IMG/VR virus record: IMGVR_UViG_3300008267_000189
Span: 581-64,580 of that record
DNA length: 64,000 bases
Source: a virus
Taxonomy: Duplodnaviria > Caudoviricetes
Reading direction: 5' to 3' (one strand)
Under the pieces are notes generated by a model, which was not told the DNA's origin, ran no database searches, and saw only the letters and a list, made by a program, of their open reading frames with translations. The translations under genes were made by a program, and so were the position numbers. Shown in pieces: positions 2,618 through 26,143 of the stretch (positions within the stretch are counted from its first letter, which is position 1; the number at the start of each line of letters is the position of its first letter).

Positions 2618-4351
2618 ATGAGCAAAAATACTATAATCGATGGAATTGCGGCTTCCGAGCATATTGATTCTTCAGGAGAGTCTTTAAGTATCGAGGGAAT
2701 GGACACTTCTAGTTTAGGAGGTCCGGACTCTATACTAAACTGGGAGCATGGATCAAAGGATCGCCCTGGTCAAGTTGTTGGCAAGGTAACTTTTGCCAGA
2801 AAAATCATGAAAAAGGAAGACGCTAAATCAGAAAGAGAGCTTTATTTTTGGAATAAAGCAAAAAAACCTTTTGTTTACATTAAAGCCGAATTATTTGATG
2901 GACTAGGCCATTCTGGCGCAGAGGATGTGGCCGCCATGTTAAAATATAAGAATAAAGACAAGGGCGAAGATAGCAGGCTTGTTGTAGGGTTTTCGATAGA
3001 AGGTGGTAAAATTGAAAAAAAAGGCATGCTTGTAACAAAATCCATTGCAAGAGATGTTGCCATTACCGTCAAGCCTTGTAATAAGATATGTGATGCAGAG
3101 GTTATTGAAAAAGACGTTTCTGATGATTTTCTTTACAAAAATCAAAATTTCGATTGTGAAATTATAAACAATGAATTATCAATAAATTCAACAGCTTTTA
3201 GATCAATGCTACTAGATAGTATTAAAAAAAGCGAATGGAAACCTTCTAAAGAAGATAAAGAACAAATTAAAGAATTAAAAATAAATTCTAAAGCAAAACA
3301 ATTAATTGAAAAATATAATACAGATAACAACATGAGAAAAGCTCTTATTGCTGGCATGATATCGGGATCTCCTGATTCAAGAACAGGAACAGCAGCCTTG
3401 ACTTCTGAACATTTAGAAGGTAAACTAGAAAAACCTTTCAGATCAAAATCTCAACGTAAATTTGCCTATGCCAACCCTGAAAAATTTGGCGGCAAAGAAG
3501 GTATAAAAGAATGGGAGAGTAAAACTTCTAAAAAATTGCCTGAAAAAGTTAAAAAATCTAAAAAGCTAGAAAAAAATGTTCCTTCTTTAGAATATACAAA
3601 AATAGCCGGCGAAAATATTCCTCGACAAGATGTTAAAAAAGTAACCATGGAAAACCCTTATGGATCTGGTCAAATGTATCAGGAAGATAAAAAATACCCA
3701 AGGGGTCTAAGAGGTCTGGTTAGATTTAACAAAGATAAACAAAAAAGTTCTGCTTATGATATAAGTTCAAGCTCTAGTAGGCCTGATCAAACACAGAACC
3801 AGATGGTTCGAGCAAGAAAAAAACAGATGCAAATGGAAGAACAAGGGAAAGAAGCCCCAAAACCAGGCAAAGGAAACTATCCTACAACCGAACAGCACGA
3901 GTCGTTGCATCATCACCTAAATAGGTTTGAAATTAAAAATCCTCAAAATGATAATTCTCAAGATTTAAGAAATTCATTAATAAGACACTCACTGGGATAT
4001 TTTCATCCCGAAGCAGTAAAAGCCGTTCAGAGATACTTAATGGATAATCCAGCATATAAGAAAAAAACTCCAGAAAAAATAAACGAAGAAACACTCACTC
4101 ATTTATCAGACTATAGAACCGACCCTGTAAAAAGGGAGGCTATTAAAAAATATAGCAGAATAACACACCCTGAAGAATTAAACAGATTTGATACTAGCAT
4201 TAAGTCGTCGTGGAAAAATCTAATACCTGATGCAAAAGATATCTCGTCCGAACATTTGCAGCATATACATAACAGATTTTCAAGTGATAAGCCTGAGAAT
4301 GTAGATAAATTTTATAAACAATTAAGACAAAGCTTTAAAGATGAAAAGTAA
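2618..4351 (+). CDS. Prohead maturation protease with long C-terminal extension (HExxH module)
   Basis: IDGIAASEHIDSSGE, LNWEHG (His) and GFSIEGG (Ser) motifs of the HK97/SPO1-type prohead protease; later HESLH...EE. Confidence 0.82.
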   Translation: MSKNTIIDGIAASEHIDSSGESLSIEGMDTSSLGGPDSILNWEHGSKDRPGQVVGKVTFARKIMKKEDAKSERELYFWNKAKKPFVYIKAELFDGLGHSGAEDVAAMLKYKNKDKGEDSRLVVGFSIEGGKIEKKGMLVTKSIARDVAITVKPCNKICDAEVIEKDVSDDFLYKNQNFDCEIINNELSINSTAFRSMLLDSIKKSEWKPSKEDKEQIKELKINSKAKQLIEKYNTDNNMRKALIAGMISGSPDSRTGTAALTSEHLEGKLEKPFRSKSQRKFAYANPEKFGGKEGIKEWESKTSKKLPEKVKKSKKLEKNVPSLEYTKIAGENIPRQDVKKVTMENPYGSGQMYQEDKKYPRGLRGLVRFNKDKQKSSAYDISSSSSRPDQTQNQMVRARKKQMQMEEQGKEAPKPGKGNYPTTEQHESLHHHLNRFEIKNPQNDNSQDLRNSLIRHSLGYFHPEAVKAVQRYLMDNPAYKKKTPEKINEETLTHLSDYRTDPVKREAIKKYSRITHPEELNRFDTSIKSSWKNLIPDAKDISSEHLQHIHNRFSSDKPENVDKFYKQLRQSFKDEK

Positions 4352-4727
4352 CAGAATCGCAATTGGATTAATTGTAAATCAAGAAAATAAAATGTTGATG
4401 GGAAAAAGAAACGACACAGATAAATGGACAATCCCAGCCGGACATATAGAAGAAAATGAGTGTCCTTTTGCTGGAATGGGAAGAGAGCTTAAAGAAGAGA
4501 CAGGGCTAGATGCTAAAGAAATAAAAATGATCAGAGCAGGTTTTGAGGATGGATTACTGCTTTATTTATTTGAAATAAAAACAGACTCTGAACAAAAAAT
4601 TGATACTTCCGGTGATCCGGATAAAGAATGCAATGATTGGACGTATGAAGATCCGTTTGATCATATTTATGAATTACATGTACCAGCTCATAAGAACTGG
4701 GCATTAAAACACTGGGCAAATAGGTAA
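4341..4727 (+). CDS. NUDIX hydrolase
   Basis: Nudix box GHIEENECPFAGMGRELKEETGL. Confidence 0.9.
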   Translation: MKSNRIAIGLIVNQENKMLMGKRNDTDKWTIPAGHIEENECPFAGMGRELKEETGLDAKEIKMIRAGFEDGLLLYLFEIKTDSEQKIDTSGDPDKECNDWTYEDPFDHIYELHVPAHKNWALKHWANR

Positions 4728-7922: not shown

Positions 7923-9404
7923 ATGTATAAAAAAATTATACAAGAGATTAAAAAGAATGAAAACAATAATGATTTAAGTTATTTAAATAATGTAAAACTT
8001 AACCCAGAACATGGCAAAAAGATAGCCCAAGCCTATCAGGACATGAAGCACGATCCTGACCATCCCGAAGTTCAAAAAGCATACTCAGCACTCATTGACG
8101 AGACAAAACAACAATTTAATGATATGATGAATAAAGGATTGAAAATATCCCGCATTGAACCAGGAATGGAAAATCCTTATAAAAGTTCTAAAGAGTTACA
8201 CAATGATGTTAAAAATAATAACCACTTATGGTATTTTCCTACAGAATCGGGCTTTGGAGATAATGAACAATTAACAAAACACCCAATGTTACAGTCCACA
8301 GGTGTTAAACATGGCGATAAAGAATTATTAGCAAATGATATGTTTAGAATAGTTCACGATATAAACGGGCATCATTTAGGAGGAGAGTCAGGGTTTGGAC
8401 CTACAGGCGAGCATAAAGCTTACCTCACACATAAAAAAATGTATTCGCCATTAGCGAGTAAGGCTCTTGCTTCAGAAACTTTAGGACAAAATTCTTGGGT
8501 TAATTTTGGGCCTCATGCAGAGCATAATCAAAAAAATCCAAACCAAACCGTTTATGCCGAACAAAAGGCAGGGCTATTACCGGAAGAAATAGTAAACGGA
8601 GATTGGCATAAAAACGAAATCCAGAAAGGAGAATTAATGGAAATTTTAAAAAATTTTGCATTAACAAAATCTTATGAGTATTCGCAAAAATATCCAAAAA
8701 TTTCTCAAAAAGATTTAAAGAAAAATTTTAACAAACTTCTCAGAAATGGAGTCGCATTACTAGGGCTGGTTCATGCTCATAAATACATGGATATGCCAAA
8801 CCAATCCAATAATTCCAATAAATTAATCCCGGAAAGCAATATTTCTCAAGAATTTGAAAGAGATAGAAAATCATACTCTGATAAATATAATACCAATCAA
8901 GGTACAAATTTTTCAGATAAACAAAAAAAAATAGATAATTTTTTAAAAACAACATCAATGATTGAGAGTTCTGGAGGCAAAAATTTAAAACATCCCAGAA
9001 TTAAATACGGAATGCATGCCGGAGACAAAGCAGTGGGGCAATGGGCTTTGATGCCAAAAACTATTAAGGAATTAGCAGGAAGAATGGGTGATAATTCTGA
9101 AATAGCTCCTTATGCTAAAATGGATAGTAAAAAAATATCACAGAATTTATCGCAGAATCCTGGTCACGAAAAACAGATAGCATCCTTTTTAGCAAATAAA
9201 CTATATGACAAATTCAGTGGCGATGAAAACAAAATGGCATACGCTTGGAATCAGGGGCACAATATAAATCCTGATTCATTTAAAACAGACAGAAAAGATT
9301 ATCTAAATCATGATTATGTAAAAAAATATAATGAATATAAAACTAACAACACCCCCAAACAGGAGATTTCTAGATCTATTGCAAATTTTGACAAAAATAA
9401 ATAA
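7923..9404 (+). CDS. Two-domain putative virion protein: HDxxGH zincin-like domain plus lytic transglycosylase-like domain
   Basis: NDMFRIVHDINGHH..GFGPTGE..SETLGQNSWVNFG; IESSGG..GQWALMPKT..AYAWNQG (lysozyme-like SLT motifs). Confidence 0.65.
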   Translation: MYKKIIQEIKKNENNNDLSYLNNVKLNPEHGKKIAQAYQDMKHDPDHPEVQKAYSALIDETKQQFNDMMNKGLKISRIEPGMENPYKSSKELHNDVKNNNHLWYFPTESGFGDNEQLTKHPMLQSTGVKHGDKELLANDMFRIVHDINGHHLGGESGFGPTGEHKAYLTHKKMYSPLASKALASETLGQNSWVNFGPHAEHNQKNPNQTVYAEQKAGLLPEEIVNGDWHKNEIQKGELMEILKNFALTKSYEYSQKYPKISQKDLKKNFNKLLRNGVALLGLVHAHKYMDMPNQSNNSNKLIPESNISQEFERDRKSYSDKYNTNQGTNFSDKQKKIDNFLKTTSMIESSGGKNLKHPRIKYGMHAGDKAVGQWALMPKTIKELAGRMGDNSEIAPYAKMDSKKISQNLSQNPGHEKQIASFLANKLYDKFSGDENKMAYAWNQGHNINPDSFKTDRKDYLNHDYVKKYNEYKTNNTPKQEISRSIANFDKNK

Positions 9405-10267: not shown

Positions 10268-11140
10268 ATGGATAAATTAAAAATACCCTTTCCTCCCAAC
10301 CCTGATATTGGAATCAATCTGGATTCTCAGGATGAGTTTATTAAAAATAGAGGGGTAAATCTTGAACATTATGTAGCAATACCATCTCCAATAGGATTAA
10401 AAGATAGAGGAGATTACAGAAGAACAGACCAATACGATTCTATTTCTTCAAATGGAATGATTTACAAAAAAGCCGGATGTTTTACTGGTGTTATTGTTTC
10501 TAACTCAAAAAGAAAAACAACAGGAGAAGGTGGTATAATTGACCATTCTACTGCAAGACTTCTGTTGCCTAGATTTTATAACGATCAAAAAGAAATACAT
10601 CTTGCCCCTGGAGATAGGATTTTTATAAAAGACATAGATGTACTTGTGTCAAACTATCAAAGAATGCAATATGACCCGGGAAATTTTGATAGAGCGCAAT
10701 TTCCTATAAAATGTGTTGAACATTTAATAGACAGTCGAGGGTTAGAATACAAAGAAGGAGTACATTTTAAAATTCAGGATGGATATGTTGAATGGATTGA
10801 CGGGAAAGACAATCCGGGAATAGACCCCGATACCGGCAAGGGAAGAGTTTATTCAATAAGATATAAATACAATGCTCATTGGTATATAACCGAAATACCG
10901 AACGAAGTCCGAGTAGCGCAAACATTTGGATCTAATGGAGAAAAAACTGCAGAAAGAATGCAGTATTCTGCCATCATTCAAAGAGAATATGTTTATTATA
11001 ATCAAAATAATGATATTAATAAGGATTATGGAAAGGAAAAACTAATTAGAAATATAGAAGAACCAAAAGATCCTATCGATACCATTTATGAATACGAAGT
11101 AAAAGTCGATATGAACGATATAGGAGAACAAGATGAATAA
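10268..11140 (+). CDS. Putative neck/head-closure virion protein
   Basis: LAPGDRI and YKEGVHF..YSIRY motifs as in SPO1-like neck genes; gene context. Confidence 0.5.
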   Translation: MDKLKIPFPPNPDIGINLDSQDEFIKNRGVNLEHYVAIPSPIGLKDRGDYRRTDQYDSISSNGMIYKKAGCFTGVIVSNSKRKTTGEGGIIDHSTARLLLPRFYNDQKEIHLAPGDRIFIKDIDVLVSNYQRMQYDPGNFDRAQFPIKCVEHLIDSRGLEYKEGVHFKIQDGYVEWIDGKDNPGIDPDTGKGRVYSIRYKYNAHWYITEIPNEVRVAQTFGSNGEKTAERMQYSAIIQREYVYYNQNNDINKDYGKEKLIRNIEEPKDPIDTIYEYEVKVDMNDIGEQDE

Positions 11141-11539: not shown

Positions 11540-11827
11540 ATGAGTTCTTCTAAAAAATTAGAGAATTTTCTAAAAAAATCAAAGAATGAGCAAAAAAAAG
11601 AGGCTCAAATAAAAAAGACAGAATGTATAAGCTGCGCAGATTGCGGTTTTAATTTATATGAAGGCGGAAAAAATTTAACATTATGCATTTGCTACGGCGA
11701 GGATTGGAATAAAAATATTAAAATTCAAAAGTCTGAAAACGCTATAAAAATGCAATTTCCTAAGACTATAGATCCAGAAAATATTGAGATGTTATTAAAT
11801 ACTTTAAAAAATATGAACAAGGAATAG
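11540..11827 (+). CDS. Zinc-ribbon protein (CADC...CIC)
   Basis: CxxC and CxC motifs. Confidence 0.5.
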   Translation: MSSSKKLENFLKKSKNEQKKEAQIKKTECISCADCGFNLYEGGKNLTLCICYGEDWNKNIKIQKSENAIKMQFPKTIDPENIEMLLNTLKNMNKE

Positions 11828-11829
11828 GT

Positions 11830-13623
11830 ATGAAAGAACAAATGACCTATGTAGCAATTGACGCTGACGATGTAGGAGAAAGTATCGGAGGAGCTGTGCT
11901 TTCTGATGATGCGAACAAACTCTCAACAATATCGGGGAAAATAAATACTGGCGTACAGATCTTTGCCAAGTGGGCGGAATATAATGGCGGATCTATAATA
12001 AGCAGTGGTAGCGATGAAGCTATTTTTCAAGTACCTTTAACTAGTATTGAAGAGTTAGAAGATTTGAAAAATAAATACCAAAACCATACCGGCTTTTCAG
12101 TTTCAATTGGTATTGGAGAAAAAATTTCTGATGCTGCAAAAGCTTTAATTTATGCTAAAGTAAATGGCAAAAATCAGATAGTTGATTATTCTCCTGAGAT
12201 AGAAGAAGTAATGAAACAATCTATTACAGGTAATTTAGATAAAATAAAACCAGAACAAAAATTAGAAGGTGGAATAGGGGACGAAACAGAAGAATCAGAC
12301 GTAGATGAAAATGAGTTCAAAACAGGTATTACAACTGAAAGAGAACATACTGAAGACGAGGATACAGCTGAAGAAATTGCTTTAGATCATCTTACAGAAG
12401 ATCCTGAGTATTATTCTAAACTTAAAGAAATGGAATCTAAAGACGAGCCAGATGAAGAATCAGATGAAGAATCAGATGAAGAATCAGATGAAGAATCAGA
12501 TGAAGAATCAGATGAAGAATCAGATGAAGAATCAGATGAAGAATCAGATGACTTGTCAAACTCAATAGCCATGGAAATGGAGCCTGATGAAGAATCAGAC
12601 GAAATGGGTCAGCAAGACTTGGATATCGATGGTCGTCCAGATATCCAGGAGGAACATGGAAAAATAAATCCCGAGCAGGATGACATAGACAAAGATGGGG
12701 ATGTTGAACATGAAGAAGCTATGGCTGTAGATGCTAACGAAGAAGATAGCTATAACGATGAAAATGATTTTGAAGATGAATATTTAGAATCAGATGAAGA
12801 ATCAGATGAAGAATCAGATGAAGAATCAGATGAAGAATCAGATGAAGAATCAGATGAAGAATCAGATGAAGAATCAGATGAAGAATCAGATGAAGAATCA
12901 GATGAAATGGATCAAGAAGATCTTACTGATGAATCTTTAAAACAAGCTATATTTGATAGTTTACAAATTTTTAAACAAAACAAAGATATTTTAACAGCTC
13001 TTGCCACAGAAAATCCAGATTTATATAATGCTCTTGTTGTTTCTTTACAATCAATGATAGAAATGGCAAAAGAACTTGGATATGGTGGGTATGAAGATGA
13101 TTCAAACCAAGGGATGGATGAAGATTTAAATCCGAACGATTTTGAAGTATTTGATGAGGAGTCTTCGCCAGATAATGCTGAAATGTCACAAGAAGAACTT
13201 TCTCCAGAAGATTTTGAAAAAAATGAAACCTTTTATAAATTAATAAATAAAATTAATACTGCAAAAAAAACTCTTGAGTTAAAAAAGAAAGAAGATAAGA
13301 AAAAAATGCTTTTAAAATTAAAACAAAAATTGAATAAGTTTAAAAGCAAAAATTTTCAACCCGGAAAAGATAAATCTAAATTTAAAGACAAAAAAAAGAA
13401 GGTTCCAAAACCTAAAAAAGTAGAAGCAGCGTCATTTTGTTCTTCCTCTAATCAAAAAATGAAAACATCTGGAAAAGATTGTAGAGCAAATGAGGATAAA
13501 GATTCTCCTGTATGTGCTGCAAGGAAAAAAATGAATTGCCGTGGCAAGAATGCCGAAAAAGGTTCTGCTATTCAAAAATCTGAAAAATTAAAGAAATTTT
13601 TGGAGAAAAAAAGAAAAAAGTAA
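11830..13623 (+). CDS. mCpol-like nucleotidyltransferase domain + DUF5661-like module + acidic repeats (putative internal head polyprotein)
   Basis: aa 1-120 YVAIDADDVG..LSDD..GGSIISSGSDE..SVSIGIG..ALIYAKVNGKNQI; then GITTEREHT..IALDHLTEDPEYYSKL. Confidence 0.75.
   Translation: MKEQMTYVAIDADDVGESIGGAVLSDDANKLSTISGKINTGVQIFAKWAEYNGGSIISSGSDEAIFQVPLTSIEELEDLKNKYQNHTGFSVSIGIGEKISDAAKALIYAKVNGKNQIVDYSPEIEEVMKQSITGNLDKIKPEQKLEGGIGDETEESDVDENEFKTGITTEREHTEDEDTAEEIALDHLTEDPEYYSKLKEMESKDEPDEESDEESDEESDEESDEESDEESDEESDEESDDLSNSIAMEMEPDEESDEMGQQDLDIDGRPDIQEEHGKINPEQDDIDKDGDVEHEEAMAVDANEEDSYNDENDFEDEYLESDEESDEESDEESDEESDEESDEESDEESDEESDEESDEMDQEDLTDESLKQAIFDSLQIFKQNKDILTALATENPDLYNALVVSLQSMIEMAKELGYGGYEDDSNQGMDEDLNPNDFEVFDEESSPDNAEMSQEELSPEDFEKNETFYKLINKINTAKKTLELKKKEDKKKMLLKLKQKLNKFKSKNFQPGKDKSKFKDKKKKVPKPKKVEAASFCSSSNQKMKTSGKDCRANEDKDSPVCAARKKMNCRGKNAEKGSAIQKSEKLKKFLEKKRKK
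12449..12551 (+). repeat. 12-nt tandem repeat CAGATGAAGAAT, about 8 copies (DEES)n
   Basis: Perfect in-frame repeat. Confidence 0.95.
12787..12906 (+). repeat. 12-nt tandem repeat GAATCAGATGAA, 10 copies
   Basis: Perfect in-frame repeat, same unit as at 12449. Confidence 0.95.
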
Positions 13624-13672
13624 CAGGGTCGCTAGATAAGACAAGTGGTGGACTACCGACCAAACAGACCAC
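13602..13672 (+). other. Candidate programmed -1 ribosomal frameshift signal
   Basis: GGAG 13602-05; A_AAA_AAG 13614-20 then TAA; stem GGTCG-C-TAG/CTA-C-CGACC 13627-13661. Confidence 0.55.
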
Positions 13673-13877
13673 AAAACATATCTCTAAACCCCATCATCAA
13701 GATGGGACTGTTAAAGGATATAAGATAAAAGATACAGATCCTTCAACAGGAAAGGCAAAATGGATTGACGGATCAAGGGGATTGGCCATGGACAATAGTG
13801 GGAATCCTGTAGCTCCTGAAGGGCAAAGTCCTGTGAAAGGAACTAAAAATAAACTTCCTCTTCCAGGTCTTGTATGA
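13620..13877 (+). CDS. -1 frame extension (85 aa, VTGSLDKTSGG...LPLPGLV) of the 11830 protein
   Basis: Open -1 frame with no start codon in its first 54 codons; fills the gap and ends in ATGA overlap with 13874. Confidence 0.65.
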   Translation, partial: VTGSLDKTSGGLPTKQTTKHISKPHHQDGTVKGYKIKDTDPSTGKAKWIDGSRGLAMDNSGNPVAPEGQSPVKGTKNKLPLPGLV

Positions 13878-14638
13878 TTTTAATTGATATAGAAATAGAA
13901 GGAAATTTAGAACAAGATATTGATAAAATAAAAAATAGCATTAGGGAAGATCTTAGACTTACAGTCAAGGCAATGGGTTCTAGTACATTAAAAAAAGCAG
14001 AAGAACTTGCTCAACAACATCTTTCTCCTAAACTTGCCACTATGTATAAAGCGGCTTTAAAAATAGAACAATTATCAGAAGATACTGTAATTATCGAACT
14101 GGATGAAAAAGCGATCTGGATAGAAAAAGGTCGTAAGGCAGGTTTTATGGAAGACCTTCTTAAATCAGGCACAAAAAAAGCTAAAGACGGTTCTAAATAT
14201 AGAATAATACCTGTGGGAGAATCGAAAAGATCTTCCCAACCAGCTTCAGTAGGAGAGAATCTTGTACCGGAAATAAAAACTTTTTTACAAAAAAAAGGCA
14301 TCAGAACGGGAAAAAATAATCTGGAATTGGATGATAACGGGAGTCCGAGGCTTGGTAAAATAAGTACTTTCAATATAAAAGATTTAAAAGATAAAAAACA
14401 ATTTTCTGATAATATATCTAGAATAAGTGTTTTTCAAAATAAAAACCCTAAAACAGGCGGGGTTGAAAAAAGTATAACGGCTTTTAGAGTTATATCAGAA
14501 AAACATAGAGGAACAGGAAAATGGGTCCATCCCGGAACTCCTCCTGTAAATATATTAGAAAAAGCTTTTAAATGGTCTGAACAATTGTGGGAAACAGAAT
14601 TATTCCCCGCAATGAAGTTAAGATATGAAGGTAAATAA
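13874..14638 (+). CDS. Putative neck/tail-completion protein
   Basis: WIEKG..FRVISE..WVHPG pattern; position before tail genes. Confidence 0.55.
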   Translation: MILIDIEIEGNLEQDIDKIKNSIREDLRLTVKAMGSSTLKKAEELAQQHLSPKLATMYKAALKIEQLSEDTVIIELDEKAIWIEKGRKAGFMEDLLKSGTKKAKDGSKYRIIPVGESKRSSQPASVGENLVPEIKTFLQKKGIRTGKNNLELDDNGSPRLGKISTFNIKDLKDKKQFSDNISRISVFQNKNPKTGGVEKSITAFRVISEKHRGTGKWVHPGTPPVNILEKAFKWSEQLWETELFPAMKLRYEGK

Positions 14639-15621
14639 TGTCAATATGGCAAGGTGATGTCTTTTTTAGACGAATTATAGAATTAATTTTAAGAGATATC
14701 AGACAGAACCCATGGCTGTTGGATGATATTCTTTCAGATTTTATTACAGATCCCATGCTTTCTGGAATATACGGACAAAAAGAAATTGAAAATGCAAAAA
14801 AATGGATTACAGAAAATGAAGTATCCGTTTTTTTACCACATAGAATGGATCTTGAAAAAATGCCCTGTATAACTATTGCTATAGGAAGCAATATGGAAGA
14901 CAGGAGTCTTGCTAGAATGGGAGATATGACCCATCTAGTAGAAACTTTACAACCAACCCAGATAGGCAAGGTTGTTCCTTATATAATACCTCCTTTTTAC
15001 TACACCTCTTACGATCAAGCAACAGGTTTTTTTGAAGTCCCCAGCTCAGTCGACTTGGTAATAATTCAACCTAATATGGCTGTTATAAATCCTCAAACTG
15101 GAGCCGGTTTTATTATTACTTCAAAAACTAATAATGGATTTTTTATTACCCCTGGTACTGCAATAAATTTTGAAGTTATAGCAGTAATTCCTGAATATCG
15201 AATATACAAAGCTAGAAGAGAAATTGCAACTTTTCAAGAAAATATCTCTATTGGATGCCACGTTCATGGTGACCCAAACGCCCTGCTATGGTTATATTCT
15301 GTAATGATGTACGGATTATTAAGATATAGAGAAGGGTTAATAGAAAGCAGAAATTTTCAAATATCAAATCTTACAACTACAGACATGATAAGGAATGATG
15401 CATTCCAGAGCTTTGGAGAAAACGTGTATAGTCGTTTTATAACCTTGACTGGTCAAGTAGAAAATACTTGGATTAAAGCTCCAAAGCGTATAATAGAAAC
15501 AATTAATATTATAAACGGGATAGATGCTGGGTTAATTATGATAAATAAAGATGGTGGGGAAGTTCCTGAAATTATTGATTCAGAAGAAGAGATATGGATA
15601 TCGAAAACTGATCCAGAATAA
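14638..15621 (+). CDS. Putative tail terminator/completion protein
   Basis: MPCITIAI motif; context upstream of sheath. Confidence 0.5.
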   Translation: MSIWQGDVFFRRIIELILRDIRQNPWLLDDILSDFITDPMLSGIYGQKEIENAKKWITENEVSVFLPHRMDLEKMPCITIAIGSNMEDRSLARMGDMTHLVETLQPTQIGKVVPYIIPPFYYTSYDQATGFFEVPSSVDLVIIQPNMAVINPQTGAGFIITSKTNNGFFITPGTAINFEVIAVIPEYRIYKARREIATFQENISIGCHVHGDPNALLWLYSVMMYGLLRYREGLIESRNFQISNLTTTDMIRNDAFQSFGENVYSRFITLTGQVENTWIKAPKRIIETINIINGIDAGLIMINKDGGEVPEIIDSEEEIWISKTDPE

Positions 15622-15641: not shown

Positions 15642-16292
15642 ATGGATAATTATTTAAAAGAAAAAGCTGATTTATTATTAAAATCTCTTTATAAAAATGT
15701 AAATAAATTGGGACACAAAAAAGATGCCATTGAAGACGTATTAGATTCTAATACAACAGCAGAAATGAGTCCGGATGATATTCCTGCAGGAAGCTCTAGT
15801 GCTTTAAATAAATCTAAAATGCAAAAAAAACAAAAAGTTATTGAAAAAACAAAAAATGTTCAAGATGTGAAAAAAAATGAAGAAATAGTTGAAAAACTTT
15901 TGAAAAATTTAGATGTAATTTCAAAAGCTTGTAAATCAAAAATGCAAAAAAGATGCTGGGAAGGTTATGAGTCGACTCCGGGTAAAAAGGCATATTCAGA
16001 AGGCTCTTGTCAACCTATCAAAAAAGAAGAAAAAGAGAAACCTTTTGTAGGATATAATAAAGAAAAGCACTCTAGAGAAGGTGGACTGAGCACAAAAGCC
16101 AGAGAAAAATACAATAAAGAACACGGTTCAAACTTACAAGCGCCTGTATCTTCTAAAGAAGCCAAAAAATCACCTAAAAAAGCAGCCAGAAGAAAATCTT
16201 TTTGTGCGAGGATGTCAGGGACAAAAGGAGCAACAAGCAAAGACGGTAAACTTACCCCAAAGGGTGCGGCGCTTAAAAGATGGGATTGTTAA
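15642..16292 (+). CDS. Modular putative internal head protein (CWxGY module + DUF6321-like module)
   Basis: CWEGYESTPGKKAYSEGSC; RRKSFCARMSG..ALKRWDC; late motif at 15621. Confidence 0.6.
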   Translation: MDNYLKEKADLLLKSLYKNVNKLGHKKDAIEDVLDSNTTAEMSPDDIPAGSSSALNKSKMQKKQKVIEKTKNVQDVKKNEEIVEKLLKNLDVISKACKSKMQKRCWEGYESTPGKKAYSEGSCQPIKKEEKEKPFVGYNKEKHSREGGLSTKAREKYNKEHGSNLQAPVSSKEAKKSPKKAARRKSFCARMSGTKGATSKDGKLTPKGAALKRWDC

Positions 16293-16375
16293 TAAGTATT
16301 TGAATTTATTGAATTAAATTAGATATATAAGTAATGTAGAATTAATCTTTAATATATAAAAATCAGGGGATTGGT

Positions 16376-17071
16376 ATGTCTGACAAAAAAATGTTTACAG
16401 CAGAAGAAGTGGCCAGAATGATTCTGGACAAAGCTCATAATACATTAAAAAAACATGAAGAAACATTAAAAAAATCCAAAAATACTGCTCATGAAATTGA
16501 TGCAGGAGAAGAATTTAATAATGATGAGGCGGAATGTCCAGAGTCTTTAAAAGGCGAAGGAAATTCTGAAACTTCAAAAAATGAACCTAAAAAAGAAAAA
16601 TCTTCTGTTGCAGAAAATGAAGATTCTATGATGGAGGATGAGCCTTTAAGTGACGATGAATCAGAAGAAGATGAATCAGAAGAAGATGAATCAGAAGAAG
16701 ATGAATATGAATTTAAAAAATCTCAGTCTGGAATGCATACTGTAGAATACAAGAAATTAAAAAAATTCGGATCTCAGGGAGCACCTCTTGGATCAAATCT
16801 CGGAGCTTCAATAGCAGCAGGTATTCAGGGAGTTAAAAAAGATGAAAATTCTCCAGAAGCAAAAGAAAATCCTCAATATCATATAAGAGCTACACAAGAA
16901 GGTAAAGCTCCTAAAAAACCATGGACAACCGATACTAGGCGACATATAGATTATAGTAGAAGCGGAATGAAAGGTGCTAAATTATCCAGTCCAGAAGATC
17001 AAAAAAGATTTGAATCTGAAGCTAAAGAAAGATCAAAAAAGTTTAAAGAAGAAAGCAAAAAACAAGACTAG
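16376..17071 (+). CDS. Acidic/basic putative internal head protein
   Basis: Late motif at 16344; (DESEE)3 repeat; KS motifs. Confidence 0.55.
   Translation: MSDKKMFTAEEVARMILDKAHNTLKKHEETLKKSKNTAHEIDAGEEFNNDEAECPESLKGEGNSETSKNEPKKEKSSVAENEDSMMEDEPLSDDESEEDESEEDESEEDEYEFKKSQSGMHTVEYKKLKKFGSQGAPLGSNLGASIAAGIQGVKKDENSPEAKENPQYHIRATQEGKAPKKPWTTDTRRHIDYSRSGMKGAKLSSPEDQKRFESEAKERSKKFKEESKKQD
16655..16706 (+). repeat. 15-nt tandem repeat GATGAATCAGAAGAA x3
   Basis: Direct inspection. Confidence 0.9.
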
Positions 17072-17072
17072 T

Positions 17073-18638
17073 ATGGAAAAAGATAATAAAATTCAATATA
17101 AAATTCTTAAATCTGAGGCTTGCGGCCATACCATCGAGTACAGGATGGTAAAAAAAGAACATCAGCTTGAAAAAGCTCGTATTGACGAAGGATTGTCTCC
17201 TAGAGAAAAAATGAAAGCTCGTGAGGCAAGATCTTCTAAAGAAAAAGAGCCAAGAGAATTAAGTCCTGAGCAGTATGAAACTGGTAAAAAAATAGCCAGA
17301 ACTAAGGCTGTTACTGAAACAGGTGAAAAACAAAGAAAACAAACTCTTAAAGACGTTCTTCATACACACAAACAAAATATACCAAAATCTCCCTCAAAGG
17401 AAGATTTGGAATACCCTATGGCTGCCAGTGAAGAAGAATGTGAATGTGAAGATAAAACAAAAAAATGTGAATGTGAAGATAAAGAAATCAAAAAAAGAGA
17501 AAAGTTTTACATTCAAAAGATTCAAGAATTAAGGAAACAATCACAAATAGATGCTATAAGAGGAGATTTGCCTACTCAATTAACTCCTAGAGGAATGACA
17601 TTAAGAGGAACTCCACAACAAAGACAAGCTGCTGGAATTCCTAATTTTGTTAGCAACCCAGTTACAAATCGCACGGATTTGATAGGACCTAGTGGAAAAG
17701 GGGTATTACCTTCAGGACCCCGTTCTGATCAAGTATCTGCTATAAATAGATTTCAAGAAAATCAAAATGCAGAATATAATAGACCGGCAACTGCGTCGTA
17801 TATTAAAGACGGTGTAAGAAATTTGATTGCACCTGCAACAGCAGCACCTGCAACAGCAGCACCTGCAACAGCAGCACCTGCAACAGCAGCACCTGCAACA
17901 GCAGCACCTGCAACTGGTTCTGTTACAACTGCTCCTACATCACAAAGAATGCAATTTGGGAAAGATAGCGGCGTAAGTTTTAAAGATGCTTTTGCACAAG
18001 CTAGAAAATCAGGTAATCAAGAATTTGACTGGTATAATCCTAAAACAGGTAAAACGCAACCATATCATACCTATTCAAAAGAAGAATTTCAACAAGGGAA
18101 AACTCTTGCTGCTGGAAGAAATCCTGAAGGTTTTCAATCACAAGCTATAGGTACTGACAATAAATATTTCAAAGGTTGGCAAGCTCAACAAAAAGCCTCT
18201 ACTGGACAGCCTATTACCCCTGTTGCTGGACAAGCCCCTGTTGCTGGACAAGCCCCTGTTGCTGGACAAGCTCCTGTTGCTGGACAAGCTCCTGTCCCTA
18301 CTGCTGTGCCAGCTGCAAAAACACCAAATCCAAATGCAAATGTAACAGGAATGAATCCAGATGGATCTATTTCTTCAACAGAATCTGATGGAAGGAAAAC
18401 ATTAACTATGTCTCAGAATCCCGTACCAACGGCTCGTCCTGATCAAATGGGAATGGCACCAGCTCTAAATGAGCCGGGTAAAGTGGGAATGAAAATCCCT
18501 GGTGCCTCTGTTAAATATCCAGAAGCCGAAGGTTTTAAATTTGGAGATACAGCCACAACCCAAGCCCCTACAAGCGAGCAAACTGAGGGGAATCTAAATT
18601 ATAATAAAAATAATAAATTAAACTCTAGTATGGGCTAA
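17073..18638 (+). CDS. Low-complexity modular putative internal/ejection protein
   Basis: ATG at 17073 just after upstream TAG; SFKDAFAQARKSG..FDW..YHT module; Pro/Ala linkers. Confidence 0.6.
   Translation: MEKDNKIQYKILKSEACGHTIEYRMVKKEHQLEKARIDEGLSPREKMKAREARSSKEKEPRELSPEQYETGKKIARTKAVTETGEKQRKQTLKDVLHTHKQNIPKSPSKEDLEYPMAASEEECECEDKTKKCECEDKEIKKREKFYIQKIQELRKQSQIDAIRGDLPTQLTPRGMTLRGTPQQRQAAGIPNFVSNPVTNRTDLIGPSGKGVLPSGPRSDQVSAINRFQENQNAEYNRPATASYIKDGVRNLIAPATAAPATAAPATAAPATAAPATAAPATGSVTTAPTSQRMQFGKDSGVSFKDAFAQARKSGNQEFDWYNPKTGKTQPYHTYSKEEFQQGKTLAAGRNPEGFQSQAIGTDNKYFKGWQAQQKASTGQPITPVAGQAPVAGQAPVAGQAPVAGQAPVPTAVPAAKTPNPNANVTGMNPDGSISSTESDGRKTLTMSQNPVPTARPDQMGMAPALNEPGKVGMKIPGASVKYPEAEGFKFGDTATTQAPTSEQTEGNLNYNKNNKLNSSMG
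17829..17915 (+). repeat. 15-nt tandem repeat GCACCTGCAACAGCA x5 plus partial (APATA)
   Basis: Direct inspection. Confidence 0.95.
18219..18295 (+). repeat. 18-nt tandem repeat CCTGTTGCTGGACAAGCY x4 (PVAGQA)
   Basis: Direct inspection. Confidence 0.95.
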
Positions 18639-18865: not shown

Positions 18866-21037
18866 ATGGCACAACGATTAACTACTAGCTTTGTAAATAC
18901 CAACATCCCAGGTGCTTATCCAAGCGTGACGGTAAAATCAACCCCTGTAGGCATTTCAAGTACTGGTGATATTGTTATTATCGGAGAAGCCGAAGGCGGT
19001 GCTGATTTTACACAAGATCCACTTAAAGATAACTTTTTTACTGCTACTCAGTTAACTAGAGTAAGAGCAAAATATTTAAAAGGCCCAATCGTCGATGCTA
19101 TGGCTGCTCTTATTTCTCCAAGCAACGATACTAATATACAAGGATCAATCGGCAAAGTTTATATTGTTAAGACCAACGGTGGATCTAAAGCAAAAGCCAA
19201 TGTTCTTGGCGGATTTGATACGTATGGCATACTTAAAGATAAAAATTTTGGCGTTGATGGTAATAAGTATTTTTTTAAAATAACTCAAGCAGAAACCGAG
19301 GTTGCCCCTTCAATTACAGGTAATAGTTTAGCACCTTTTTCAGCCTCAAATTTTGATGACGTTTCTTTTAGTGTTAGATTAAACGGAGAAGCCATAACGA
19401 CCATTAACTTGGAAGTCGGATCTCATAACACTTTAGAAGATCTTGCAACTGAAATTAATTATAAACTCCCCACAGGATTAAGCTGTTCAGCAAATGTAGC
19501 TACTACATCGCTTGTTATATTTGTACAAGCTGACGCTCAGGCAAATGCGGCGGGATATGGTAAATCTTTTGAATTAGTAGATTCAACTCCAGGTGATTTA
19601 GAGTATATTGGCTTCAGTGAAGAGCTTGTTGTCTCTTCTCAAGAACCAGAAATTCAACTCACTATAAACAGACAAGATACCAATACAAACGAATCGTTTA
19701 TGATGGAAGCTCAGATAGCACTTACTGTTGGATATGATGGAACTAGTGCTGTTCTTTCAATTTCTGATGGAGTTCTTATGACTACAGTAGTCGGAGGGAC
19801 CGGTTCTAATCTTAGTATTACATTAAGTGAATTTACAACCATGTCAGATCTTGCTGCTTTTATAAATTCTCAAGAAGGATACTCAGCATCGTCTGTGGCT
19901 TCTTCAAATAATCTCAGTCCTTTAAAGCTTGATGAAGTTTCGGCTGTTGGAATCGCCACTTCAGGAGGATTTGAAGCCGGGAGAATTAAAAGAGCCGCTC
20001 ATAATTTTAAAACAAAAGTTGCAGAAAGTTCTGTTCTTGATTTTGAATCTCTGGTAGCAGCAGGTCTTCCTAGTGAAACAGTTACCTCTAAATTTCTTGG
20101 ATCTGAAAGTGAAGAATATAAAGGGAAAAAAGGTGCTACTACCGCTGCTGATATTGCAAATGCTATTCCTGCTTTAGAGGGTATTAAAGTTAATTTTGTT
20201 ATTCCTTTATTTTCTAGAGATGCTTCTGAAGATATAGCAGACGGATTAACCGATTCAAGTTCTACTTATACAATCGATGCTATTAATGCTCTTGTGAAAT
20301 CTCATGTTCTTGCCATGTCAACTCCTAAAATGAAAAGGAACAGAATGGCAATGCTTAGTAAACAAGCCAGTTACTCAGCTGTAAAAGCTGCCGCAGCTTC
20401 TTTGTCTAATTTTAGAGCTAGTATGTTTTTTCAAAAAACAAGTCAAGTCAATTCTGTTGGGGATGTTGTAGAATATCAACCATGGCATACCGCTTGTGTT
20501 GCAACAGGTATGCAATCTGCAGGATTTAATAAATCTCTTACTAATAAATTTGCTAATGTTATTAGTTTTAAAGATCCTTCAGGGTTTGATTCTGGCAATC
20601 CAGGTGATGTTGAGGATGCAATTGATGCAGGATTGTTCTTTATGCAACAAGAAACTGCAGGTAATAAATGGGTAGTCGATCAAACGACCTACGGATTTGA
20701 TACAAATTTTGTATACAATTCATTACAAGCCATATATATGGCAGATGTTCTTGCGATTCAGCTTTCTGAATCTCTTGAAAAATTTGCAGTAGGTCAATCG
20801 CTTGCAGATGTTACTTCCGCCGGTATTATTGCTTTTATTTCTAAAAAAATGGAAGAATATAGAAAACTAAAAATAATTGGCGCTTCAGACGATGCTCCTT
20901 TGGGGTATAAAAATGTCAGCGTTGTTATAAACGGTCCTATCGCAGAAGTTAAACTCGAAGCTAAACTTGCTACGGCAATCTTGTTCATACCTATTGAACT
21001 AGAATTGAGCCAGATCCAGTCTAGTGCATCAGCATAA
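18866..21037 (+). CDS. Contractile tail sheath protein
   Basis: IPGAYP..IIGEAEGG N-terminus and C-terminal sheath domain; followed by tube gene. Confidence 0.88.
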   Translation: MAQRLTTSFVNTNIPGAYPSVTVKSTPVGISSTGDIVIIGEAEGGADFTQDPLKDNFFTATQLTRVRAKYLKGPIVDAMAALISPSNDTNIQGSIGKVYIVKTNGGSKAKANVLGGFDTYGILKDKNFGVDGNKYFFKITQAETEVAPSITGNSLAPFSASNFDDVSFSVRLNGEAITTINLEVGSHNTLEDLATEINYKLPTGLSCSANVATTSLVIFVQADAQANAAGYGKSFELVDSTPGDLEYIGFSEELVVSSQEPEIQLTINRQDTNTNESFMMEAQIALTVGYDGTSAVLSISDGVLMTTVVGGTGSNLSITLSEFTTMSDLAAFINSQEGYSASSVASSNNLSPLKLDEVSAVGIATSGGFEAGRIKRAAHNFKTKVAESSVLDFESLVAAGLPSETVTSKFLGSESEEYKGKKGATTAADIANAIPALEGIKVNFVIPLFSRDASEDIADGLTDSSSTYTIDAINALVKSHVLAMSTPKMKRNRMAMLSKQASYSAVKAAAASLSNFRASMFFQKTSQVNSVGDVVEYQPWHTACVATGMQSAGFNKSLTNKFANVISFKDPSGFDSGNPGDVEDAIDAGLFFMQQETAGNKWVVDQTTYGFDTNFVYNSLQAIYMADVLAIQLSESLEKFAVGQSLADVTSAGIIAFISKKMEEYRKLKIIGASDDAPLGYKNVSVVINGPIAEVKLEAKLATAILFIPIELELSQIQSSASA

Positions 21038-22186: not shown

Positions 22187-23182
22187 ATGGAAGAAAATCA
22201 AGGTAAATTTAAAATTATTAAAGCGACAGCTTTAGAAGAAATAAGTGATGGGTCTGTAAAAGAATTACCAGAATCTGATCTTTGTATCCAAACTAGCTCC
22301 CATATTGTTCAATACAAATATATAGATGAAGAAGATGAAAACAAAGGGAAAGTTACGATTAAACCCGGCATTTGGACAATCGTAAATTTAGGCGGATCGC
22401 TTCGTCTTAAAAAATTAGAACTTAAAATTCATAATTTATTAGAAACAGCCACAAATAGTGCTCTAATTCAAAAAGAGGCAAGGCTTTTTTTTAATAAATT
22501 AGATATTTACAAGAAATTCAAAAAAGAACCTAAGAGATCAATTCTTCTATACTCCCAGCCCGGTATGGGTAAAAGTTCAACAATTGCTAAAATTAGTAAT
22601 GATTTTCTAAATGAAGACGAGGGAACTGTAGTAATATTCTGGGACACATCCGATATTGGATCTGGAGCAGTGAGTAAATTTTTATCTACAGGTAGTAAAT
22701 TTTCAAATAAATGCACAAGAATGTTTTTTATTATGGAAGATATTGGAGGTGGAAATGCGGAAGATTACCACGGACCCAGAACAGCTGATTCAAGTCTTCT
22801 TGAACTTTTAGATGGAGCGTCTGTTAATTTTAGACTTCCTACATTTATTATAGCTACAACAAATACTCCTGAAAATTTGCTTAAATCACTAGCAGATAGA
22901 CCTGGAAGATTTGATCAAATGTTTGAGTTAGTAGGACCTGACGCAGAAGAAAGAGTTAAATTGGCAGAACACATGTTTGGAACAAAATTAACAGAAAGCC
23001 AAAAGAAAGCTCTGATGGACAAAGATGCCGACGGTCTTAGTGTTGCTCATATTTCTGAAATAATTATCAGATCAGAACTTCACGATAAAACTTATTCAGA
23101 AGTCATTAGAGAAATGAAAGATCATAAGAAAAAAATAGAAGCAGCTTTTCAAAAAGCGAAGTCCAAGATGGGATTTGCTTAA
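22187..23182 (+). CDS. AAA+ ATPase
   Basis: Walker A SQPGMGKSS, Walker B FIMEDI, SRH ATTN..DRPGRFD. Confidence 0.88.
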   Translation: MEENQGKFKIIKATALEEISDGSVKELPESDLCIQTSSHIVQYKYIDEEDENKGKVTIKPGIWTIVNLGGSLRLKKLELKIHNLLETATNSALIQKEARLFFNKLDIYKKFKKEPKRSILLYSQPGMGKSSTIAKISNDFLNEDEGTVVIFWDTSDIGSGAVSKFLSTGSKFSNKCTRMFFIMEDIGGGNAEDYHGPRTADSSLLELLDGASVNFRLPTFIIATTNTPENLLKSLADRPGRFDQMFELVGPDAEERVKLAEHMFGTKLTESQKKALMDKDADGLSVAHISEIIIRSELHDKTYSEVIREMKDHKKKIEAAFQKAKSKMGFA

Positions 23183-24358: not shown

Positions 24359-26143
24359 ATGACTGTAAAAAAAGTAAAAAGTCCTGCTAAACTTTATTGT
24401 TCAAATTCCTCAATACTAAGAAGAATGACATCTGAGACTATGGACGAGATATCCAATATTGTCGGATCTAGCTATGGTCCAGGAGGAAAAACTACGCTTA
24501 TTGAAAGCGAGTATCCTGGAATTCCTAATAAAAACACAAAAGATGGGGTAACAATTTTTAAATCATTGGGATCTCAAGATCCCTATAAACATTTAATTAT
24601 TGAACAAACAAGAGATGCGGCCCAAAGAACAGCCAGCGAAGCAGGGGACGGAACGACTGCTACTACCATAATTTCTGCTCATCTTGTTAAATCTTTATTT
24701 AAATATTGCGAAGAAAACCCTAAAGAATCCCCTCAAAGAGCTACGAGAATTTTAGATAAAATAGTAAAAAAAGAACTTATTCCAGCCGTTAGAAAAGCTT
24801 CTATTCAAATCAATACAGATAACCAACATCTTCTTGAAAAGGTTGCCAAAGTTTCTGCTAATGGCGATGAAGAAATGGCCGAAGCGGTTATGAAAGCTTT
24901 TGATATTGTAGGATTTGGAGAGTCTTCGCACGTTACAATCCAGGAACTTTCAGGTCCAGGTGGTTACGAGGTAGATCTTATTGAGGGATATCCTATAGCA
25001 ATTGGTTTTGAAGAATCTATCGGTAAATTTCATACTGCTTTTATAAATGATAAAGCTAATCAAAGATGTAAATTAGATAAACCTTTATTTCTTCTTTATG
25101 ATGGAATAGTTAATGATTTAGTAACTTTCCTACCCTTAATAGATTCCTTAGGAAAAAAATATGTTCAAGAAGGGGATTCTGATTACTGCAATCTAGTTCT
25201 CGTAGCTCATGGATTTTCAGAAAATGTATTAACAACTCTTGCTTTTAATTTCTCAAATCCAACAACTTTAAATGTTGTTCCAATGGCAACTCCTATAACT
25301 AATCAAAAAAATTCTAGACTAGAATTTTTATATGATTTATCAGCTTTTGCAGGTGCTAAAATTTTTGATATGACCAACCAAGTATCGAAAGCCAGTCTGG
25401 AAGATTTAGGCGCAGGAATGGAATTGTTTGAATTTTACAGGTTTAGAGGGACGGTAGTAGGCCAACCAGACGAGATGGATATATCTGATCGTGCTGAAGA
25501 ACTAGAGCAGCAACTTAAAAATGCTGCAAGTATTTCTGAAAAACTTGATCTAGAAGAAAGGCTTGGAAAGTTAACAAATGGTATTGCAAAACTTAAAATA
25601 TATGGGGCATCTAATGGTGAACTTAAAGAAAGACATGATAGATGCGAAGATGCTGTTTGTGCCGTAAGAAGTGCTATTAAGCACGGCGCTCTTCCTGGAG
25701 GGTGTAGAGTTCTTGTTAATTTAGCATTAAAATTAAACTCTGAATATGAAGAAAGTCATAGAGATTATAATTTAGTACAAACAGTTTTGATAGAAAGTCT
25801 TATGGAGCCTTTAAGAAAACTTCTAGATAATGCAGGATATAATTCTGAAGAAATTCAAAAAATTATTACAGATTATTTTCTTGATACACAAAAAGTTTAT
25901 GATATAGAAAATATGGAATTTGGAGATCCTGAGGATTTGGGAATTTTTGATGCTTCTCAAGCAGTTATTCAAGCACTAGAAAATAGCGTATCAATCGCCA
26001 GTGTAATGGGTAATTTAGGCGGAATTGTTTGTTCTCCAAGAGATAACCAGCTTGAATTACAGGCATGGAAAGAAGAGCAAGATTTTAGAAGAGCTGTAGA
26101 TCATGCAGAAGAATTTATAAACGAAGCAGATGTAAGACCATAG
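24359..26143 (+). CDS. groEL: Phage chaperonin (GroEL-like)
   Basis: SYGPGG, TKDGVTI, EAGDGTTA, ERLGKL..G.A, LPGG motifs. Confidence 0.92.
   Translation: MTVKKVKSPAKLYCSNSSILRRMTSETMDEISNIVGSSYGPGGKTTLIESEYPGIPNKNTKDGVTIFKSLGSQDPYKHLIIEQTRDAAQRTASEAGDGTTATTIISAHLVKSLFKYCEENPKESPQRATRILDKIVKKELIPAVRKASIQINTDNQHLLEKVAKVSANGDEEMAEAVMKAFDIVGFGESSHVTIQELSGPGGYEVDLIEGYPIAIGFEESIGKFHTAFINDKANQRCKLDKPLFLLYDGIVNDLVTFLPLIDSLGKKYVQEGDSDYCNLVLVAHGFSENVLTTLAFNFSNPTTLNVVPMATPITNQKNSRLEFLYDLSAFAGAKIFDMTNQVSKASLEDLGAGMELFEFYRFRGTVVGQPDEMDISDRAEELEQQLKNAASISEKLDLEERLGKLTNGIAKLKIYGASNGELKERHDRCEDAVCAVRSAIKHGALPGGCRVLVNLALKLNSEYEESHRDYNLVQTVLIESLMEPLRKLLDNAGYNSEEIQKIITDYFLDTQKVYDIENMEFGDPEDLGIFDASQAVIQALENSVSIASVMGNLGGIVCSPRDNQLELQAWKEEQDFRRAVDHAEEFINEADVRP

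Follow-up and report, generated by a model that had tools for sequence, protein, structure and literature searches.

The window analysed here covers 64,000 bases of a 64,580-base virus record in IMG/VR (IMGVR_UViG_3300008267_000189; CheckV completeness 40%), and on its plus strand, inside a neck and tail operon, lies a gene whose product begins with a genuine minimal CRISPR polymerase (mCpol) domain with a retained active site. The rest of the protein is a family-specific carrier which, to judge from its coding sequence, is made in two lengths (597 and 682 amino acids, aa) by programmed –1 ribosomal frameshifting. The encoding phage is a large, uncultured freshwater relative of Myxococcus phage Mx1; in Mx1-like myophages, whose genomes measure ~160-170 kb, the gene is nearly universal and belongs to the late structural module. 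As a whole, we read it best as a frameshift-dosed neck carrier with a competent, ATP-using mCpol that would be delivered by the virion, and we put the probability of this reading at roughly 0.5. An initial annotation of this DNA had proposed a virion-delivered mCpol; it had seen neither the –1 frameshift extension, nor the dead copy in Mx1, nor the near-universal core-gene status of the gene in its phage clade. The elements on which the reading turns are these:

11830-13623, plus strand: zero-frame open reading frame (ORF), the short isoform of the mCpol carrier, 597 aa; taken from the ORF list, with ~40 metagenomic homologues of the same architecture
11848-12189, plus strand: mCpol palm domain, aa 7-120; identified by Pfam, phmmer against the PDB, AlphaFold2 (AF2), Foldseek and dimer prediction
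13614-13620, plus strand: slippery heptamer A_AAA_AAG in zero-frame phase, abutting the stop codon TAA at 13621-13623, with GGAG upstream at 13602-13605
13620-13877, plus strand: –1 frame extension of 85 aa plus stop, yielding the putative long isoform of 682 aa; identified by homology, by the ratio of nonsynonymous to synonymous substitution rates (dN/dS) and by assemblies without indels

The five motifs on which the initial annotation had based its call are all present in the translation: YVAIDADDVG (aa 7-16), LSDD..L..IS..I (aa 24-38), GG.II..GSDE (aa 53-63), SVSIGIG (aa 90-96) and ALIYAK..GKNQI (aa 105-117). The mCpol identity itself was borne out in Pfam, where the ORF matches PF18182 above the gathering threshold (E = 1.4e-18; 67.7 bits, the cut-off being 26.4), and aa 7-120 span the profile from position 1 to 114 of 114; taken alone, the first 140 aa reach E = 4e-20 (72.7 bits), far beyond chance, and the Pfam score for Cas10-Cmr2_palm2 lies under its cut-off (20.7 against 27 bits). 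Searching the PDB with phmmer returned 9nwn_B (mCpol; E = 1.5e-10) and 9mnr_A (OptS; E = 3.8e-10). The kinship with OptS extends to the predicted structure: in an AF2 model of the whole protein, built from 57 aligned homologues, the predicted local distance difference test (pLDDT) exceeds 90 over aa 1-135, and Foldseek places OptS/mCpol structures at the top, with 9mnr_A at TMt 0.89, a root-mean-square deviation (rmsd) of 1.4 Å and 116 columns, and 9pd0_C at E = 1.1e-7. OptS/mCpol fold matches overall span TMt 0.85-0.89, rmsd 1.4-1.8 Å and 29-32% identity; next best are Cas10/Csm1 and GGDEF domains, at E = 3.6e-5 and weaker.

The active site had been described as keeping its catalytic aspartates while reading DAD for DGD and GSD for GGD, and both statements are right for the window sequence. 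D11, D13 and D14 align with the N-terminal DGDD of 9NWN (D11/D13 with its D6/D8), and D62 with the Asp of its AADG loop. Both variant positions recur among 184 related domains, position 12 being Gly in 116 and Ala in 56, and position 61 Gly in 145 and Ser in 39. S35 and N39 align with S30 and N34 of 9NWN, the two residues that confer ATP selectivity on that mCpol according to the accessible text of Doherty et al. (PMC12657230). Predicted as two copies with ATP, the domain forms a symmetric homodimer with S35, N39 and residues 56-62 at its interface (score 0.79 against 0.42 for the best control; at least 92% of contacts common to the runs; partner pLDDT at least 88). Of 30 proteins solved as one-chain pairs, 20 reach the mark applied, as does 1 of 23 whose structures are single chains, and since OptS/mCpol dimers have already been solved, the pass may only mirror likeness to known structures. 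From the residues it retains, we consider the domain probably an active cyclase.

Homologues are numerous and their active sites strictly kept. A word-indexed search returned 51 proteins on contigs of up to 162 kb, 40 of them with mCpol and 26 of these also with DUF5661; 900 cluster representatives came out of an exhaustive search at E ≤ 0.001, 568 of them at E ≤ 1e-10. When the best representatives were scanned by Pfam, 99 of 99 matched mCpol, five also DUF5661 and two NUDIX. The aspartates stand up across the 184 related domains, with D13 in 184/184 and D62 in 183/184, alongside K110 (184/184), E63 (168/184), S35 (152/184) and N39 (82/184); position 11 is Asp in 137 and Asn in 47. Because these sets had been found through mCpol itself, we also retrieved relatives through the tail terminator alone. 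This search gave 104 relatives, of which the best 80 were kept and 55 had at least 3.5 kb of upstream sequence; mCpol is present in 52 of these 55 loci and the C-terminal extension in 53. Among the 59 mCpol matches of this set, where covered, D13 (56/56), D62 (58/58) and K110 (59/59) are invariant, and position 63 is Glu in 55 and Gln in 3. Five CheckV-complete relatives (169-172 kb) carry exactly one mCpol match apiece. The domain has a dN/dS of 0.03-0.09 in comparisons that allowed an estimate of dS, and its dN is the lowest of any part of the protein. A single-domain search of genome contigs returned 0 relatives, a result that is uninformative on prophage or bacterial copies.

The zero frame ends in ...AGA AAA AAG TAA, placing the heptamer in X_XXY_YYZ phase directly before the stop, and the stop of the long isoform overlaps the ATG of the next gene (ATGA). 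The –1 frame extension is homologous to the in-frame C-termini of three related proteins (P0020, P0022 and P0026). By tblastn against 80 loci (79 from IMG/VR plus Mx1), it lies in the –1 frame just past the stop in 40, is fused in-frame in 13, sits in the +1 frame in 6 and escaped detection in 21; a profile search recovered it in 71/80, once per locus, including Mx1, where it is in-frame. An in-phase X_XXY_YYZ heptamer occurs no more than 60 nt from the stop in 39 of the 40 –1-class loci (A_AAA_AAG 18 times, C_CCA_AAG 16 times), set against a background elsewhere in these ORFs of 263 per 42,087 codons, or 0.125 per 20 codons. Purifying selection acts on the –1 frame (dN/dS 0.11-0.20 in comparison with the related loci L003, L004 and L011). 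Contigs of three other public runs from three studies (X3, X4 and X5) bridge the slippery site without an indel, and the –1 arrangement is therefore not an assembly slip. The downstream RNA at 13621-13700 gave no significant fold (z = –1.53).

The initial annotation had the domain fused to head-protein modules, and this part did not survive: the other 470 aa match only DUF5661 in Pfam and nothing in PHROGs. PHROGs holds no family for the whole ORF or for its first 140 aa, and PADLOC has no match for the ORF. The part outside mCpol is a family-specific carrier, not a head protein, and is composed of the following modules:

12301-12441, plus strand: DUF5661, a three-helix module, aa 158-204; Pfam PF18905 at E = 2.5e-13, pLDDT 90-97 over aa 150-205
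12449-12551, plus strand: perfect 12-nt tandem array of 8.6 copies encoding acidic (SDEE)n linker 1; Tandem Repeats Finder (TRF), 100% matches, pLDDT <50
12607-12777, plus strand: conserved middle domain, aa 260-316, with two EF-hand-like DxDxDG loops; pLDDT 76-89
12786-12906, plus strand: perfect 12-nt tandem array of 10.1 copies encoding acidic (SDEE)n linker 2; TRF, 100% matches
12925-13083, plus strand: conserved helical 'anchor' domain, aa 366-418; pLDDT ~91, common to most mCpol-bearing representatives
13435-13620, plus strand: basic C-terminal region with four conserved Cys, aa 536-597; net charge +13, 4 Cys

In the AF2 model, disordered spacers separate these modules (aa 210-257, 317-365, 421-462 and 507-535) and aa 460-505 form one long helix; each (SDEE)n linker carries a net charge of –34. 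The EF-hand-like loops lie at aa 263-274 and 285-296, their loop residues being retained in 41-53 of 57 aligned homologues. The consensus of an EF-hand loop is DxDxDGx(hydrophobic)xxxE; the Pfam scan of the ORF did not call an EF-hand at these loops, which may form a metal-dependent switch on the tether. The anchor domain shows a dN/dS of 0.06-0.08 (in comparison with L003 and L004), and a C-terminal query found matches in 155 of 197 stored proteins, most of them falling on the helical domain (aa 365-425). In the homologue alignment, the C-terminal consensus reads SFCA.S..KM...GKDCR.NEDK.SP.C.ARKK.NCRGKN.

The exceptions to mCpol conservation throw light on this architecture. In Mx1, the orthologue WNM70340.1 (468 aa; L002 8956-10362) retains a fold-length domain, the helical anchor segment and the extension; its Pfam mCpol score of 21 bits falls under the cut-off, and the residues at positions 11, 16, 62, 63, 110 and 114 are Ser, Glu, Ala, Val, Gln and Gly. 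By its residues, the Mx1 mCpol is a dead copy; the Mx1 genome note gives no annotation at this gene (PMC10720576). In three of the 55 terminator-retrieved loci (L148 4779-6218, L149 4896-6224 and L155 4779-6218), the carrier stands at the same place and keeps the extension (E = 1e-22 to 1e-25), and it starts with four to six C-x-Y-C repeats, likely a metal-binding module, with no palm domain. These loci are a natural cargo swap. Together with the dead Mx1 copy, they show that the carrier is the constant part and that its N-terminus resembles an exchangeable cargo slot, usually filled by mCpol.

The placement among neck genes, likewise claimed by the initial annotation, proved sound: the next gene has a tail-completion fold and the one after it encodes the tail terminator. 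The conserved neighbours are:

10268-11140, plus strand: conserved upstream gene for a virion structural protein; phrog_1004 'virion structural protein' at E = 3.5e-7, 63/80 loci
11540-11827, plus strand: small conserved Cys-rich (Zn-ribbon-like) gene directly upstream of the carrier; weak Zn_ribbon match at E = 0.054, 63/80 loci
13874-14638, plus strand: tail completion protein-like gene (HK97 gp10 / lambda gpZ / 80alpha gp51 fold); VIA-align, 79/80 loci
14638-15621, plus strand: tail terminator-like gene; PF23932 SP10_terminator in the family, 78/80 loci
18866-21037, plus strand: tail sheath gene; weak Phage_sheath_1 match at E = 0.0013, syntenic with the annotated Mx1 sheath, 77/80 loci

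The gene order kept across the 80 loci runs from the virion protein (10268) through the small Cys protein (11540), mCpol carrier, completion protein, terminator and sheath to the tube, with presence in 63, 63, 80, 79, 78, 77 and 70 loci, respectively. The AF2 model of the 13874-14638 product (pLDDT 83.4) has 9mu2_P as its top VIA-align match (Z 11.8, rmsd 2.1 Å, 106 aligned), followed by a next match at Z 6.5; Foldseek returned nothing for this model at E ≤ 0.001, so that the tail-completion fold comes from VIA-align only. We took 9mu2_P to be 80alpha gp51 from its modelled range of 7-115, an assignment made from part of the source. In the available portion of the structural report, gp51 is the tail completion protein, equivalent to lambda gpZ, SPP1 gp16.1 and HK97 gp10, and touches DNA inside the neck (bioRxiv 10.1101/2024.12.10.627806). 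PDB sequence searches with single sequences or profiles gave nothing meaningful for the 10268, 13874 and 14638 products. In the terminator family, 32 of 37 members match SP10_terminator (best E = 1.1e-8), the window copy at only E = 0.0016. Between terminator and sheath (15642-18638, plus strand) lie three charged, low-complexity ORFs: a DUF6321 protein, an acidic (SEED)n protein and a 554-aa protein with APATA and VAGQAP repeats (Cementoin match). Since these are present in only 5-23 of the 80 loci, we regard them as variable, cargo-like inserts.

How might such a protein work? At the N-terminal cargo position, a long, flexible, acidic tether would carry an ATP-using mCpol that is competent for catalysis, and the long isoform would use its conserved C-terminal extension to dock at or inside the neck or head. 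So docked, it would take the cyclase along with the particle. The enzyme could then enter the next host with the DNA and make cyclic di- or tri-adenylate before phage gene expression. Its most plausible purposes would be to silence Panoptes-type guards that respond to signal loss, to jam or pre-empt effectors of the cyclic-oligonucleotide-based antiphage signalling system (CBASS) and of type III CRISPR, or to manipulate host nucleotide signalling in some other way. An enzyme of a late operon acts early in infection only if it is packaged, so timing would favour packaging. We give association of the carrier with the virion slightly less than an even chance, and regard a counter-defence purpose as doubtful. 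The fullest form of this proposal is improbable: large myophages of a clade found worldwide would package a working cyclic-oligoadenylate synthase, held on a frameshift-dosed neck anchor, and inject it together with their DNA.

Several observations weigh against virion delivery of a working cyclase. The sole cultured relative, Mx1, has lost D62, E63, G16, K110 and K114, which implies that catalysis is dispensable for Mx1, where the carrier appears to work without it; D11 is replaced by Asn in 18 of 77 loci, and E63 by Gln in 7 of 79 covering loci. Moreover, the carrier has no PHROG or structural-family match, and its anchor and extension have no solved relative. Frameshifting of the –1 type is, besides, a common trait of assembly chaperones, such as lambda G/GT, that the finished particle does not contain.

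A rival view is that the carrier is a neck or tail assembly factor, a head-tail joining component or chaperone whose palm domain serves dimerisation or nucleotide binding, with any cyclase activity secondary to morphogenesis. We consider this unlikely. It would account well for the fixed place directly before the tail completion and terminator genes, the overlap of the long isoform's stop with the next gene's start, a two-length design resembling that of tail assembly chaperones, the upkeep of fold, anchor and extension around a dead active site in Mx1, and the 3 of 55 loci in which the carrier lacks mCpol. However, invariant D13, D62 and K110 at ~35-45% identity, combined with the lowest dN, are hard to explain without catalysis, and the ATP-selectivity residue S35 is kept in 152 of 184 domains. 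An identity as scaffold or tail chaperone taken from gene position alone was rejected as the main account, given that the active site is strictly conserved.

Alternatively, the protein could be a late enzyme that is not packaged and acts in the producing cell, silencing guards during sponge action, excluding superinfection or timing lysis. Its late-operon position and an abundant short isoform without the conserved extension are what such an enzyme would predict, but the tethering to a conserved anchor and extension, the synteny with neck genes (77-79 of 80 loci) and the swapping of N-terminal modules on one carrier would go unexplained, and we hold this, too, to be improbable. The palm superfamily includes non-cyclase transferases, and the domain might instead be a palm nucleotidyltransferase that modifies a phage DNA end or a neck protein, aided by the basic, Cys-rich tail. 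While the four-cysteine C-terminus fits this proposal, as does an adjoining gene with the fold of 80alpha gp51 (DNA-contacting in the neck in the available part of its source), the nearest sequence and fold matches are cyclases and the predicted symmetric dimer puts S35, N39 and residues 56-62 at the interface, as in a cyclase; a transferase is therefore very unlikely. A competent mCpol delivered on a frameshift-dosed neck carrier remains our preferred reading.

If the fullest form of the proposal were true, with a working synthase packaged and injected, the phage would write immune-type second messengers in its host from the first seconds of infection. This could be the 'anti-anti-anti-defence' that has been foreseen for Panoptes, or it could jam CBASS and type III signalling in general, and the carrier would serve as a modular vehicle for delivery with exchangeable N-terminal cargo. 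Studies of mCpol have so far treated it only as the bacterial half of guard systems, by which phages that remove immune nucleotides are punished. If a phage lineage maintains an active-looking mCpol among the core genes of its particle operon, it would follow that viruses, too, write such signals; this would offer a testable way towards the phage counter that has been predicted for Panoptes, and would reveal a modular, frameshift-dosed carrier for enzyme delivery. Even if not packaged, a conserved late phage cyclase without its own sensor would point to an unknown host target.

As the initial annotation had stated, no CARF, SAVED or 2TM-beta partner is recognisable nearby: none was found in Pfam (52 window ORFs) or PADLOC (26 ORFs, 1351-23836), nor did the same scans find a Cap15-like or other cyclic-nucleotide receptor. 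SAVED and Cap15_CD_rec were found in 0 of the five complete relatives, a weak negative given that control genomes were silent too. With no receptor partner found, this is not a Panoptes system but an orphan cyclase domain. Panoptes is defined by an mCpol adjoining a 2TM-beta or CARF-TM effector in a bacterial genome; here the neighbours are phage neck and tail genes.

The literature we searched holds no description of a phage-encoded mCpol, the defining paper (Burroughs et al. 2015) lying outside that search. In the portions available, mCpol is bacterial throughout in the Panoptes literature (PMC12657218, PMC12657230, PMC13577387) and in a 2026 review; type I Panoptes makes 2',3'-c-di-AMP and type II cyclic tri-adenylate (cA3) in the accessible parts of the same three papers. 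Doherty et al. gathered 295 mCpol loci, by the accessible text (PMC12657230), as against the 900 clusters found here. Among the titles listed, full-text searches gave no virion enzyme described as a minimal CRISPR polymerase, and they found no paper that names DUF5661, PF18905, DUF6321 or PF19846. An induced island of CBASS and type III-B protects M. xanthus from Mx4 and not from Mx1, as far as the available text goes (PMC11506125); because the Mx1 copy is dead, mCpol cannot be the reason why Mx1 escapes.

The closest cultured phage is Mx1 (169.6 kb), with a portal identity of 47% as compared with ~25% to all other phages of the collection. Public sequencing runs containing this DNA are labelled freshwater or lake metagenome, and none among those listed holds RNA data. 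The window also encodes a major head protein, terminase, portal, ClpP-like prohead protease, GroEL-like chaperonin and ribonucleotide reductase, together with DNA polymerase III alpha, RecA, a DnaB-like helicase and ThyX. The GroEL-like chaperonin and two ClpP-like proteases, one of them probably the prohead protease, lie at 24359-26143, 36480-37457 and 59547-60263 (plus strand). An AAA ATPase at 22187-23182 (plus strand) matches PADLOC IetA models (E = 2e-9), a defence-type ATPase within a phage genome. A 493-aa protein (7923-9404, plus strand) ends in an SLT lytic transglycosylase (Pfam E = 9.5e-5) and probably acts as an enzyme that is ejected or associated with the tail; the N-terminal domain (aa 24-230) shows 56-73% identity over 21 related loci with many invariant His, Asp and Glu, and found no match in Pfam or PDB sequences and no informative one in the Atlas. 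The window further carries a NUDIX gene (4341-4727, plus strand) that overlaps the end of a 577-aa ORF (2618-4351, plus strand) by 11 nt and also matches PADLOC PDC-S07 (E = 1.9e-8). NUDIX, mCpol and DUF5661 occur in single proteins of two relatives, P0144 (987 aa) and P0150 (1716 aa), and a giant NUDIX protein lies upstream in Mx1. The association of NUDIX with mCpol may link a writer and an eraser of nucleotides.

Compared with known systems, the domain is like Panoptes OptS/mCpol (PDB 9mnr, 9pd0, 9nwn) in family, length, fold, catalytic Asp, Ser/Asn selectivity residues and predicted homodimer. Unlike Panoptes, it is encoded by a phage rather than in a bacterial defence island, has no 2TM-beta or CARF-TM effector partner, and is joined to a ~470-aa carrier with a frameshift extension inside a neck/tail operon; where 9NWN has AADG, the window mCpol has GSDE (family majority GGDE). 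With the Cas10/Csm1 palm and GGDEF cyclases it shares the palm superfamily, the family's GGDE resembling GGDEF, whereas the phage protein has one minimal palm only, lacks HD, D2 and all other Cas10 domains, and lies outside any CRISPR context. Polyvalent, virion-delivered phage proteins, a precedent for delivery of such an enzyme, carry GGDEF and RelA/SpoT domains, for which interference with host nucleotide signals was proposed in the accessible text of Iyer et al. 2017 (PMC5512222), a paper in which mCpol has 0 occurrences. The carrier resembles them in joining an enzymatic 'conflict' domain to unrelated modules, in its phage structural region and in a swappable N-terminus; it differs in bearing no MuF, portal or LPD by Pfam and one recognisable enzyme domain only. 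Morphogenesis genes of phages are known to use –1 frameshift pairs, such as lambda G/GT and T7 10A/10B, and A_AAA_AAG is a dnaX-type site. Like those pairs, the carrier has an in-phase X_XXY_YYZ heptamer before the zero-frame stop and a conserved –1 extension that is in-frame in some lineages; unlike the lambda G/GT type, its gene lies upstream of tail completion rather than between tube and tape measure, and its N-terminus is an enzyme.

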